Of a stretch of DNA of 64,000 nucleotides, positions 25,938 through 58,109 are shown piece after piece. Origin of the DNA: an uncultured Rikenellaceae bacterium. GTDB taxonomy: Bacteria > Bacteroidota > Bacteroidia > Bacteroidales > VadinHA17. The position numbers and the translations under genes were made by a program. Under the pieces are notes generated by a model that saw only the letters and a program-made list of their open reading frames with translations, was not told the origin of the DNA and searched no databases. The stretch is from the NCBI GenBank assembly GCA_964421975.1, contig CAYQZL010000004.1, positions 818 through 64,817 on the forward strand. Reading direction: 5' to 3'. Within the stretch, counting starts at the first letter, position 1. Every line of letters begins with the position of its first letter.

Positions 25938-25975
25938 AACGCCGTCACGGATTCAACTGTGACGGCGTTCTTTTA
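25938..25975 (+). terminator. Intrinsic terminator after the zinc-ribbon gene
   Basis: gaacgccgtcac-ggattcaact-gtgacggcgttc followed by tttt. The 12-bp stem is perfect. Confidence 0.8.
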
Positions 25976-25995
25976 TGTTGACCAGTCAATAAAAA

Positions 25996-26055
25996 ATATG
26001 TATTAAAATATGTATTAAAATATGTCTTTTAATATGTCTTTTAATACGTAGACGC
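25996..26055. repeat. 12-bp tandem repeat (atatgtattaaa x2, atatgtctttta x2, plus a degenerate fifth unit) upstream of hutU
   Basis: Read directly: units at 25996, 26008, 26020 and 26032, with a partial unit at 26044. Confidence 0.9.
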
Positions 26056-26101: not shown

Positions 26102-28111
26102 ATGGAAGACATTATTTTCAGAAAGAGCATCACCGAAGGCATCCCTGCGGTTTTACCTCCCCCGAAGCCTTATGAAAAAAACATAAACCATGCCCCGGCA
26201 AGAAAGGATATTCTTACTGCAGGGGAGAAAAAACTCGCTGTCAGGAATGCCCTGAGATATTTTCCTGAGGAATTTCATACAGTTCTGGCACCCGAATTCG
26301 CCGGAGAGCTTACGGAATACGGGAGAATTTATATGTACAGGTTCCGTCCCGGATATGAAATGAAAGCACGGCCGGTATCTGAAATTCCCCACAGGTCACT
26401 GAAGGCAGCTGCGATTATGATGATGATACTGAATAATCTCGATCCTGCTGTTGCCCAGCATCCGCATGAACTGATAACTTACGGAGGTAACGGCGCGGTA
26501 TTCCAGAACTGGGCACAATATCTTCTGACTATGAAGTATTTGTCGGAAATGACAGATGACCAGACACTTGTAATGTATTCAGGACATCCCCTGGGTTTGT
26601 TTCCTTCACATAATGATGCTCCGAGAGTCGTTGTAACAAACGGAATGGTCATCCCAAACTATTCCTCACAGGATCACTGGGAAAAATTCAATGCACTTGG
26701 AGTATCTCAGTACGGGCAGATGACTGCCGGCTCATTCATGTATATCGGTCCTCAGGGTATTGTTCACGGGACCACAATTACACTTCTCAATGCGGGAAGG
26801 AAAATAAGTAGTGGCGATAACAGTTTTAAAGGGAAACTCTTTGTTTCATCAGGTCTGGGGGGAATGTCGGGGGCACAACCAAAAGCAGCATCGATTGCCG
26901 GTATGACATCAGTTATCGCCGAAATAAATCCCAGGGCAATGAAAAAAAGGTATGAACAGGGATGGGTCGATGAGGTGATAACCGGTCCTGACAGACTTGT
27001 GGCAAGAAGCATGAATGCCGTAAAAAAACATGAGACGATATCAATCGGTTACCTTGGCAATATAGTGGATGTATGGGAAAAATTTGCTGATGAGGGCATT
27101 ATGGTTGATATCGGATCTGATCAGACTTCTCTTCATAATCCCTGGGCAGGAGGCTATTATCCGGCCGGACTTACATTCGAAGAATCTGTACGTATGATGA
27201 CGACTGATCCTGAAGAGTTCAGGAAAAGAGTAAAGTCATCTCTCGTCAGGCAGGTTGATGCGATCAACAGGCATACTGCACGGGGAACTTATTTCTTCGA
27301 TTATGGTAATGCCTTTCTTCTGGAAGCTTCACGCGCAGGTGCTGATATATTACAACCCGGTGGGAGCTTCAGGTATCCTTCATATGTTCAGGATATTATG
27401 GGACCAGTCTGTTTTGATTACGGTTTTGGTCCCTTCAGATGGATTTGCTGTTCAAATGATCCGGAAGATCTGAAAATCACAGATACTGTTGCAATAAATG
27501 TACTTGAGGATCTGAAGAAGGATTCGCCGGCTGAAATAAGCCGCCAGATGGCTGATAATATTCACTGGATAAGAGAAGCAGGCAGGAACCGCCTGGTAGT
27601 TGGTTCCCAGGCAAGGATACTTTATGCTGATGCTGCAGGAAGGATTTCAATTGCAGAGGCATTTAACAAAGCAGTCGCATCAGGAAAAATATCCGCTCCG
27701 GTTGTAATCGGGAGGGATCATCATGATGTTTCGGGTACTGATTCTCCGTTCAGGGAAACTTCGGATATTTACGACGGTTCAAAATTTACGGCAGACATGG
27801 CTGTCCAGAATGTGATCGGAGATGCCTTCCGCGGAGCTACCTGGGTCTCGTTGCATAACGGAGGCGGAGTTGGATGGGGCGAAGTCATAAACGGGGGATT
27901 CGGTATGGTGATTGATGGTACAGAGGAAACTTTACAAAAGATAAGACTGATGCTCCACTGGGATGTAAACAATGGTATTGCCAGAAGAAGCTGGGCCAGG
28001 AACAAAGGGGCAATATTTACTCTTAAAAGAGAAATGGAACGGACACCGGGGCTTAAGGTTACAATTCCGCATATCGCTGATGACAAAATAATTGATCAGG
28101 CATTCAGGTAA
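26102..28111 (+). CDS. hutU: Urocanate hydratase (long form)
   Basis: 669 aa. YGGNGAVFQNWAQY, MTAGSFMYIGPQGIVHGT and GLGGMSGAQP. Confidence 0.9.
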   Translation: MEDIIFRKSITEGIPAVLPPPKPYEKNINHAPARKDILTAGEKKLAVRNALRYFPEEFHTVLAPEFAGELTEYGRIYMYRFRPGYEMKARPVSEIPHRSLKAAAIMMMILNNLDPAVAQHPHELITYGGNGAVFQNWAQYLLTMKYLSEMTDDQTLVMYSGHPLGLFPSHNDAPRVVVTNGMVIPNYSSQDHWEKFNALGVSQYGQMTAGSFMYIGPQGIVHGTTITLLNAGRKISSGDNSFKGKLFVSSGLGGMSGAQPKAASIAGMTSVIAEINPRAMKKRYEQGWVDEVITGPDRLVARSMNAVKKHETISIGYLGNIVDVWEKFADEGIMVDIGSDQTSLHNPWAGGYYPAGLTFEESVRMMTTDPEEFRKRVKSSLVRQVDAINRHTARGTYFFDYGNAFLLEASRAGADILQPGGSFRYPSYVQDIMGPVCFDYGFGPFRWICCSNDPEDLKITDTVAINVLEDLKKDSPAEISRQMADNIHWIREAGRNRLVVGSQARILYADAAGRISIAEAFNKAVASGKISAPVVIGRDHHDVSGTDSPFRETSDIYDGSKFTADMAVQNVIGDAFRGATWVSLHNGGGVGWGEVINGGFGMVIDGTEETLQKIRLMLHWDVNNGIARRSWARNKGAIFTLKREMERTPGLKVTIPHIADDKIIDQAFR

Positions 28112-28148
28112 TAGAAAATTCTGATTTGGATGAGACTTTTATTAGTTA

Positions 28149-28239
28149 CACAGAGTTACACAGAGGGTTCACAGAGTTTCACAGAGTTTCAAAGTATTAA
28201 CCTCTGTGGCCCTCTGTGAATCCTCTGTGTAACTCTGTG
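28149..28239. repeat. 4+4 word-hairpin array: (CACAGAG)x4 in 10/11/10-bp register, a 15-nt loop, then (CTCTGTG)x4
   Basis: CACAGAG at 28149, 28159, 28170 and 28180. CTCTGTG at 28202, 28212, 28223 and 28233. The outer 17 bp pair perfectly (cacagagttacacagag with ctctgtgtaactctgtg). The array sits between the convergent hutU and ispF genes and abuts the ispF stop. Confidence 0.9.
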
Positions 28240-28725
28240 TTATTTCTTAAAATTCTCCAGTAATACAGAAGCCATTGCCGCTATACCTTCCTCACGACCG
28301 ACAAATCCCATTTTTTCTGTAGTAGTGGCTTTAACTGATACAGCATCAATATTAATGCCGAGGATCGATGAAATAACCGATCTCATTTCGTGAATGTACG
28401 GGGCTATTTTTGGTTTCTCCAGACAGACGGTGCTGTCGATATTGATGACTGAAAATCCTTTTTCCCTTATTATTTCCAATGTTCTTTTAAGGAGTATCTT
28501 GCTGTCAATATTCCTGAATTCCGGGCTGGTATCGGGGAAATGATGTCCGATATCTCCAAGTGCTGCTGCACCGAGCATTGAATCGCATATAGCATGCAGA
28601 AGAACATCACCATCGGAATGAGCCACGCAGCCTTTATCCGATGGTATCAGGATACCTCCGAGCCATAATTTTAAACCTGTTTCGAGCCGGTGGAAGTCAA
28701 TACCCTGACCTGTCCTCAGGTTCAT
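28240..28725 (-). CDS. ispF: 2-C-methyl-D-erythritol 2,4-cyclodiphosphate synthase
   Basis: 161 aa. GIDFHR, HSDGDVLLHA and GDIGHHFPD. Its start overlaps the porV stop (ATGA). Confidence 0.95.
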   Translation of the reverse strand: MNLRTGQGIDFHRLETGLKLWLGGILIPSDKGCVAHSDGDVLLHAICDSMLGAAALGDIGHHFPDTSPEFRNIDSKILLKRTLEIIREKGFSVINIDSTVCLEKPKIAPYIHEMRSVISSILGINIDAVSVKATTTEKMGFVGREEGIAAMASVLLENFKK

Positions 28726-44730: not shown

Positions 44731-44780
44731 AAGAAAATATGGGATTGTTGGTATGGATGTTGAAAGTTAGTTATTTTGTA

Positions 44781-44825
44781 GTACTTAAAGTATTTAAAGT
44801 ACTTAGAGTACTTAGAGTACTTAGA
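44781..44825. repeat. 9-bp tandem repeat x5 (gtacttaaa, gtatttaaa, gtacttaga x3)
   Basis: Read directly from the sequence. Confidence 0.9.
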
Positions 44826-44870
44826 GTTTTTAACGTGGAACTCCGCTTTCGCCAGGGCTTAGGCTGGCAA

Positions 44871-44950
44871 ACACTGAAACACTGAAACACTGAAACTCTG
44901 AAACTCTGAAACACTGAAACTCTGAAACTCTGAAACACTGAAACTCTGAA
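44871..44950. repeat. 8-bp tandem repeat x10 (A = acactgaa, B = actctgaa, order AAABBABBAB), ending 10 nt before the folC ATG
   Basis: Read directly. An eleventh partial unit (acataatg) follows. Confidence 0.9.
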
Positions 44951-54783: not shown

Positions 54784-54880
54784 CTTTGTGTCCCTTTGTG
54801 TGTACTTTGTGTCCTTTGTGGTTATAAAGCATTGTTGTTTAACCACAAAGAGCACTAAGGAAATCACAAAGAGCACAATG
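54784..54880. repeat. 4+4 word-hairpin array, CACAAAG variant: (CTTTGTG)x4, a 17-nt loop, then CACAAAG/CACTAAG/CACAAAG/CACAATG
   Basis: CTTTGTG at 54784, 54794, 54805 and 54814. The inverted words are at 54844, 54853, 54865 and 54874. The inner 10-bp stem is perfect (ctttgtggtt with aaccacaaag). Confidence 0.9.
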
Positions 54881-57834: not shown

Positions 57835-57922
57835 ATCATTTCCGGGAACCAGCTTCTTCCCCTCTTTATGTTCTTTTGTGATCGCCCTGGTGCCCTACTA
57901 TATAACTAATTTAAAAAACTTA

Positions 57923-58042
57923 CACAGAGATCCACAGAGGTTCACAGAGATCCACAGAGAATCGATTTACTAACTCTGTGGAACTCTGTGACTTTTTCAC
58001 CCACCGAAGCCTTGGCGCAGGTGGGCTCTGTGGGACTCAGTG
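57923..58042. repeat. 4+4 word-hairpin array (CACAGAG x4 at an exact 10-bp period) whose right arm is split by a 35-bp insert carrying its own hairpin
   Basis: CACAGAG at 57923, 57933, 57943 and 57953. CTCTGTG at 57974, 57984 and 58026, and CTCAGTG at 58036. The insert at 57991-58025 contains cccacc...ggtggg. Confidence 0.9.
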
Positions 58043-58109
58043 TAATTGAGAGTTATTTTTTTTGATGTTCCCATTTTTTATTGATGGGTGTAAACTTCGT
58101 GGCAAATTC

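Follow-up and report, generated by a model that had tools for sequence, protein, structure and literature searches.

The palindromes of repetitive extragenic palindromic (REP) sequences have a 5' end marked by a conserved head of the GTAG type. In REPIN/RAYT systems, short extragenic palindromes are present in tens to hundreds of copies, the gene of the associated enzyme is flanked by inverted copies of its own repeats, and inheritance is vertical (PMC3116915, PMC5581495). A different layout is that of the intervening sequence (IVS) of the Coxiella 23S rRNA, in which a small open reading frame (ORF) lies in the loop and the terminal stem is cut by RNase III (PMC4990558). Here, we describe a hairpin found at positions 28149-28239 of a 64,000-nucleotide stretch (the window) of contig CAYQZL010000004.1 from an uncultured Rikenellaceae bacterium, in which the word CACAGAG is repeated four times in one arm and its complement CTCTGTG four times in the other. 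This hairpin (copy 1) is a gene-less member of a palindrome family that elsewhere brackets a gene of the GxxExxY family. The family is an extragenic palindromic repeat with an associated enzyme gene, and it lacks the two features that define REP/REPIN sequences, the Y1 transposase and the GTAG head.

The tie between the word arrays and the GxxExxY gene is seen from both sides. In some pairs, the arms are separated by 379-459 nt and have between them a gene of about 123 aa, which matches TIGR04256 ("GxxExxY protein", E = 8e-45) and PF13366 (PDDEXK_3, E = 1.6e-42). In the reverse direction, 80 metagenome loci were picked by GxxExxY protein similarity alone; 72 of them had both flanks, and at 54 of these at least two words were present on each side of the GxxExxY gene, compared with none of 949 control positions in the same loci. 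The loci of the 72 that fell outside the 54 mostly contained degenerate words or an inside-out arrangement. Furthermore, an unbiased search for repeated 5-mers around GxxExxY genes returned only sub-words of C-R-C-N-R-A-G, and no other small protein family, four-helix-bundle IVS proteins included, was found to recur beside the arrays. The gene-less form is nevertheless the commonest state among family copies. Copy 1 has at least three CRCNRAG words per arm and a mirrored arm with the proper ends, and a 15-nt loop takes the place of the gene between its arms; since the window is without a GxxExxY gene, all four copies that it contains are gene-less members.

On the + strand, the left arm of copy 1 (28146-28186) is made of TTA and four CACAGAG words, which start at 28149, 28159, 28170 and 28180 and are separated by the spacers TTA, GGTT and TTT. 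The loop (28187-28201, TTTCAAAGTATTAAC) is inverted with respect to the orthologous copy of a related metagenome-assembled genome (MAG). The right arm (28202-28242) is made of four CTCTGTG words starting at 28202, 28212, 28223 and 28233, with the spacers GCC, AATC and TAA, and is followed by TTA, which on the - strand is the stop codon of ispF. The architecture given in a preliminary description of this sequence, four words, a 15-nt loop and four complementary words with mirrored spacings of 10, 11 and 10 nt, is therefore confirmed, and so is its position between convergent genes: hutU (26102-28111, +) and ispF (28240-28725, -) converge on copy 1, whose last word adjoins the ispF stop. The outer flank of the right arm, TTATTTCTT, is similar to the family flank TAAGTTCTT. 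CACAGAG occurs 18 times in the window against 5.2 +/- 2.4 expected, and none of 100 shuffles attained 18. The inverted repeat has arms of 53 nt with 81% complementarity. Two of the three spacer pairs are paired in the + strand fold, TTA/TAA by Watson-Crick pairs and GGTT/AATC with one G-U pair, and the earlier statement that most spacers cannot pair was wrong for this copy. In the predicted fold of the + strand RNA (-64 kcal/mol, z = -13.8), 29 pairs follow one another without a break; the - strand RNA folds almost as stably (-62.6 kcal/mol, z = -12.9).

The family extends well beyond this genome. One genome per species, 596 Gb in all, was scanned for three CACAGAG words with 3-4 nt spacers, a single-word seed; at least 120 loci were matched, where base counts alone predict about one exact match by chance, a figure that generic 10-11-nt tandem repeats could raise. 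These loci belong to Bacteroidota, Chloroflexota, Ignavibacteria, Acidobacteriota, several classes of Proteobacteria, Armatimonadota, Kiritimatiellota, a Heliobacteriaceae MAG and two archaeal MAGs, and most of them follow a common plan, in which TTA is followed by four words with 3, 4 and 3 nt between them, then by a short loop and a mirror arm ending in TAA. Words were detected by a fixed pattern, and several of the statistics reported here derive from tens of elements. Over all loci, 375 of the 381 arrays have three or four words, and the 3-4-3 nt spacing (10-11-10, with a 21-bp double unit) is the commonest pattern (86/381 arrays). In general, an arm of the family is composed of 3-4 words C-R-C-N-R-A-G placed 1-4 nt apart, with ends TTA...TAA or TCAC...GTGA. 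Four words per arm are typical of the Bacteroidota-type copies, whose consensus is TTA-CACAGAG-wta-CACAGAG-aAGa-CACAGAG-nTn-CACAGAG; the elements of a second class have arms of three words set 1-2 nt apart, and their ends are TTCAC...GTGAA, starting with TTCAC-CRCNGAG.

Further elements were found in the non-seed flanking sequence (21 in 636 kb, or 3.3 per 100 kb, and none in simulated sequence), and gene-less copies occur at about 3-6 per 100 kb, mostly downstream of genes. Of 73 gene-less copies found elsewhere, 9 overlapped long ORFs and 19 lay at the edge of a locus or far from ORFs; the 45 that could be classified were located between convergent (10), tandem (31) or divergent (4) genes. 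These data bear out the previous view of a dispersed, mostly extragenic palindrome family, found mainly at the 3' ends of genes, in which the word is kept more than the full sequence. Viral contigs, which served as a control for tandem repeats, gave 54 loci, nearly all of them one-stranded arrays, with only 3 hairpin pairs; they had no GxxExxY gene, GxxExxY had no PHROG match, and a phage origin of the family was rejected on these grounds.

The protein encoded in the cassettes has the invariant residues E27, D67, E77-x-K79 and Q91-x3-Y95, which we take to be the PD-(D/E)XK motif set as in RecB/Cas4-like nucleases. Weak matches to the Cas4 nuclease core support this assignment; membership in a known defence system was discarded, this weak similarity being all that was found. 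No match was found by sequence search in the PDB, and none to GxxExxY in PHROG. The family is very large, with more than 8000 clusters matched for PF13366 at E <= 1e-10, and a survey of the superfamily gives its function as unknown and its clades as mixed, bacterial and archaeal (PMC3424549).

The two arms of one element tend to share their word. The word pairs vary by cassette, being CACAGAG/CTCTGTG, CGCAAAG/CTTTGCG, CACGAAG/CTTCGTG, CGCCGAG/CTCGGCG and others, and the majority word is equal in both arms in 42 of 64 cassettes (66%), compared with 17% expected if the arms were independent. Between close cassettes, the word has been switched in both arms together (L138/L144, with 89% protein identity, L196/L201, and L189/L193 at the same host site; L numbers denote the loci analysed). 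The arms are also mirror images in their spacing, since, of 18 pairs with an asymmetric spacer pattern, 14 show it mirrored and none in direct order. In 11 strict 4+4 elements from unrelated organisms, 83% of the cells pair and the covariation score is 0.158, which none of 500 shuffles reached; shuffling gives 0.094, and slid partner columns give at most 0.086. Covariation of the arms, which had been put forward as a sign of a hairpin, is thus present at the level of the whole element, whose word type changes in both arms together, and is absent at the finer level, at which word variants within an element do not covary in register. A period of about 10 bp had been regarded as the conserved feature of the family together with the word; spacer length is instead lineage-dependent, with periods of 8, 9, 10 or 11 nt, being 3-4-3 nt in Bacteroidota-type copies and 1-2 nt (period 8-9) in many other lineages, and helical phasing as a family property was rejected.

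The copy at the ispF/hutU site has a traceable history. Relatives with 89-90% identical ispF (Rikenellaceae or Bacteroidales MAGs) share the PorU-PorV-ispF/hutU synteny and have the element at the same site, which indicates that the copy is old and vertically inherited. Compared with the Rikenellaceae MAG CAYPHL01, the flanks are colinear, and the loop and the inner words are inverted, the outcome expected of recombination between the two arms. In the copy of another lineage, the first word is broken by a mini-hairpin, the loop is enlarged by about 170 nt, including a terminator-like hairpin, and the right arm has decayed; no remnant of a GxxExxY gene was found in the enlarged loop of relatives. 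Two metagenome contigs of the same species differ from the window, one by the lack of a 10-nt unit and the other by a point change within a word. The element thus combines long residence at its site with turnover at the DNA level, by which its interior is quickly restructured. The same residence is found for the gene-bearing form, because cassettes at the same host sites (between mutase subunit genes, or upstream of a DUF58-like gene) share 68-76% identity where the host genes share 82-89%, and a divergence that runs alongside that of the host genes points to vertical inheritance, as in REPIN/RAYT systems.

Some observations at these sites are of interest in themselves. The ispF product has 161 aa in the window and 159 aa in most relatives, the ancestral stop having been lost: at 28240-28248 the gene runs two Lys codons into the flank motif of the element and stops beside the last word. 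At the mutase site, the GxxExxY gene lies between the methylmalonyl-CoA mutase subunit genes in L147, L189 and L193, three organisms with differing words and the same inside-out site, where the CTCTGTG array is upstream and the CACAGAG array downstream. The genes of the window also include type IX secretion genes, coding for PorV and a PorU-like Peptidase_C25.

Several described repeats share part of this organisation. As in REP and REPIN/RAYT systems, the palindromes are dispersed and extragenic, gene-less copies far outnumber the gene and residence at a site is long. In contrast, the enzyme of the word-array family is a PD-(D/E)XK nuclease and not a Y1 HUH transposase, of which the window has no homologue; the arms are built of a repeated 7-nt word rather than of a single palindrome of 20-40 nt; the ends are TTA-CACAGAG or TTCAC-CRCNGAG, with no GTAG head; and the family spans many phyla, archaeal MAGs included. 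A RAYT or an IS200 element was also considered as the partner enzyme and rejected, since only one shell contained an IS200 TnpA, which scored 21.8 bits (RAYT cut-off, 80), and the window contained no such gene. The shell in question, L060 567-1347 of an Abditibacterium MAG, has an IS200/IS605-family TnpA (NF033573, E = 1.9e-38) in its loop instead of GxxExxY.

The likeness to the 23S IVS of Coxiella and Leptospira concerns the gene-bearing cassettes, which are about 0.45-0.5 kb long and have an ORF of about 120 aa in the loop and a terminal stem of about 30-40 bp. Unlike the IVS, the word-array elements lie between protein-coding genes, with no rRNA detected in the window; furthermore, the cassette ORF codes for a nuclease and not for a four-helix-bundle S23p protein, and the stems consist of repeated words. 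The copies of the window also recall miniature inverted-repeat transposable elements (MITEs), being small, gene-less and multi-copy, with inverted arms, and apparently non-autonomous kin of the gene-bearing form. They differ from MITEs in that no cognate transposase is known, the only recurrent cargo being GxxExxY, and in that neither insertion polymorphism nor target-site duplication was seen, the ispF/hutU site being conserved; the 3-nt ends are part of the consensus of the element and are not evidence of target duplication. Finally, the short tandemly repeated repetitive (STRR) sequences of cyanobacteria are intergenic arrays of contiguous 7-nt units of other sequences, in which nested small hairpins have been reported and no mirrored 4+4 arms around a nuclease gene described; the present family likewise consists of heptamer-based intergenic arrays with nested mini-hairpins. 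In a search of open-access papers and preprints we found no paper on the word-array architecture or on its link to GxxExxY, although curators may have noted such repeats in unpublished form.

By analogy with REPIN/RAYT systems, the family may represent a DNA-level palindrome paired with a PD-(D/E)XK nuclease, an explanation to which we assign about half of our confidence. In the full form, the two arms bracket the GxxExxY gene of about 123 aa, the product of which is a putative PD-(D/E)XK nuclease with intact catalytic residues. The arms would be kept alike by slippage together with inter-arm recombination or gene conversion; the nuclease may recognise the word duplex, or the hairpin or cruciform that it forms, and would cut there, promoting the copying or repair by which the repeats are spread and maintained. 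Copy 1, if transcribed at the ends of hutU and ispF, would give a very stable hairpin, and an effect as terminator or 3' protector would be a plausible secondary consequence. Only tentatively, we go further and propose that heptamer-word palindromes and GxxExxY might constitute an undescribed enzyme-repeat pairing with an origin independent of REPIN/RAYT, in which a Cas4/RecB-like nuclease maintains or spreads the hairpins and CRCNRAG acts as a recognition code that drifts in both arms together.

A number of points weigh against the pairing of palindrome and nuclease. No GxxExxY gene was found by tblastn in the 64-kb window, and for its copies the partner enzyme is assumed to act in trans. To our knowledge, a lone nuclease is unable to transpose DNA, and any spread would need host recombination. 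Neither an insertion event nor an empty site or a target duplication was observed, and in relatives with 89-90% ispF identity the old ispF/hutU copy occupies the same site. The loss of the 10-nt unit may reflect misassembly. The AlphaFold model of the protein is poor (predicted local distance difference test score, pLDDT, 61.7), and Foldseek gave no match with E <= 0.001, its weak hits being all PD-(D/E)XK nucleases. Moreover, the arrays around some GxxExxY genes are inside-out, and there are single arms as well as inverse units, which means that the unit of the family is not fully defined. Lastly, register-specific covariation of the word variants was not found within elements, and the spacers of gene-less copies show a complementarity of 0.42 against 0.41 predicted from the family consensus, with no excess.

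The last two results bear equally on the nature of the constraint. The mismatches of the stems, 36 G-U and 30 A-C, have no sense-strand G-U bias, and an RNA-specific constraint is therefore not shown by them; together with the missing register covariation and spacer excess, they argue against a fine-grained constraint on RNA. The constraint acts on the whole element and is strand-symmetric, which is easier to reconcile with DNA-level copying of the arms, or with a word duplex that is recognised as such, than with a specific fold of the RNA. This lowers the standing of the explanation in which an RNA-level function is selected, with the hairpin acting as terminator or 3' protector of the hutU and ispF transcripts, or as a double-stranded RNA site for RNase III as in the stems of the 23S IVS, and with the nuclease gene as a mere passenger; we regard this explanation, the main rival, as rather unlikely. 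Both strands of copy 1 do fold very stably, with z near -13, the stem is followed by UUAUUUCUU on the + strand, and gene-less copies are depleted from divergent regions (4/45 classified). An RNase III site would also render harmless those cassettes that lie between co-transcribed genes, such as those for the subunits of methylmalonyl-CoA mutase. The Coxiella IVS is organised alike, with its ORF in the loop and RNase III cutting its terminal stem of 28 bp (PMC4990558). However, a purely structural role leaves unexplained both the conservation of CRCNRAG across phyla and the tie to one protein family, and the lack of a G-U preference and of compensation in register also tells against this explanation; one copy of the window lies in a divergent promoter region. 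No canonical terminator was called in a scan of 27800-28600, which scores only loops of 3-8 nt; on the - strand, the stem is followed by UAACUAAUAAAAG. Nor did any Rfam 15 family match within the window at gathering thresholds, rRNA included, and relaxed thresholds gave only sub-threshold matches to generic long hairpins (eukaryotic miRNA precursors).

It appears quite improbable that the elements are by-products with no dedicated enzyme, that is, slippage-prone palindromic minisatellites made uniform by slippage and template switching, in which GxxExxY inserts or survives. The variation in unit number and the flipped interior of the ispF/hutU copy would be at home in this explanation, as would a word uniformity that concerns the whole element without pairing in register, the other short tandem arrays of the same window and the IS200 transposase in the loop of one shell. 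Yet independent slippage would not converge on one word class, on three or four words per arm and on the same ends in unrelated phyla, nor would it account for so tight a tie to a single protein family (54/72 versus 0/949); and in viral contigs, tandem arrays of this word nearly always stand without an inverted arm. The second option of the preliminary description, identical words aligned on a single helical face as sites of an oligomeric DNA-binding protein of the host, has in its favour the prevalence of the 10-11-10 spacing, a word kept more strongly than the spacers and the exactly four words per arm of typical Bacteroidota-type copies, but it is very improbable, because 10-11 bp phasing is a lineage trait and the words of other lineages, 8-9 bp apart, fall on different faces, because a simple site array requires neither mirrored arms nor covarying spacers, and because a host factor shared by bacteria and archaea is unlikely.

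The tie of GxxExxY to a recognisable DNA architecture provides a testable candidate substrate for a very large family of unknown function, and a rule by which thousands of intergenic hairpins that lack an explanation, in Bacteroidota and in many further phyla, can be annotated. Should the enzyme act on the arrays, as in the pairing of palindrome and nuclease, this would be a second case, beside REPIN/RAYT, of an enzyme paired with its own palindromic repeat, with a different catalytic chemistry. In practical terms, the arrays break short-read assemblies and can flip or change their number of units.

The window contains four copies in 64 kb, one of them degenerate, and all of them lie between protein-coding genes; the recurrence previously reported at 57923-58042, 54784-54880 and 1110-1188 is confirmed, with the last of these being degenerate and having one mismatch. 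Copy 2, between a convergent GreA-like gene and a sulfatase gene, begins on the + strand with TTA and four CACAGAG words, after which come a loop of 14 nt and the inner pair of CTCTGTG words (57920-57990). Its right arm is then split by an insertion of 35 nt (57991-58025, +), which contains a GC-rich mini-hairpin of its own (57998-58005 paired with 58020-58025), and resumes with the outer words CTCTGTG and CTCAGTG, followed by TAA (58026-58045, +). Copy 3 (54784-54880, +), between a sulfatase gene and a co-directional HcyBio gene, is in the inverse arrangement, with four CTTTGTG words, a 23-nt loop, and the words CACAAAG, CACTAAG, CACAAAG and CACAATG; its loop bears the end motifs GGTTA...TTAACC, and its predicted fold has -42 kcal/mol (z = -6.4). 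Copies 2 and 3 show almost no variation in same-species contigs. Copy 4 (1110-1188, +) is a degenerate inverse 2+2 form, CTTAGTT-aac-CTTAGTG and CACTAAG-ata-CACAAAG separated by 45 nt, with a weak fold (z = -2.7); it is located between divergent gene starts and not at a 3' end, which corrects the earlier description. Since arrangements of this kind were absent from 40 Markov-simulated windows, copy 4 is probably a genuine family member.

Inverse arrangements were also observed on a larger scale. In L099 253-5357 and L063 760-5703, ordinary host genes each have a CACAGAG array on their upstream side and a CTCTGTG array on their downstream side, and the junctions consist of repeated inverse units (about 130 nt) that share the conserved loop taattcccaagcgytcaaaaga, which indicates that in some genomes the inverse arrangement is itself a dispersed unit. 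GC-rich mini-hairpins nested in word arrays are present, besides the one of copy 2 (57991-58025), at about 7260-7290 in L006, 3490-3515 in L204-L210, 260-285 in L062 and 1400-1420 in L070. Those of the type cttgtccc-N7-9-gcgggagag interrupt the word at the same position (CACA^GAG) in unrelated MAGs, and this identity of position suggests that the nested mini-hairpin is a second, very small element prone to insertion. Contigs of short-read metagenomes are broken by the hairpins, either at their edge or within them: L003 terminates at the stop codon of ispF, and L267 begins within the loop of copy 3. For this reason, the elements are likely to be under-represented or collapsed in assemblies.

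Two other groups of short repeats were noted in the window. At 44780-44950, in the divergent intergenic space between a PhoH/PIN gene and a gene of the Mur-ligase family, two unrelated short tandem arrays, of a 9-nt unit AGTACTTAR repeated about five times and of an 8-nt unit AACWCTGA repeated about ten times, flank a GC-rich hairpin (about 44836-44868). Just upstream of hutU, at 25940-26045, a terminator-like hairpin, GCCGTCACGG...CTGTGACGGCG, is followed by TTCTTTT and then by an array of 4-5 units of the 12-nt repeat AATATGTMTTWA.

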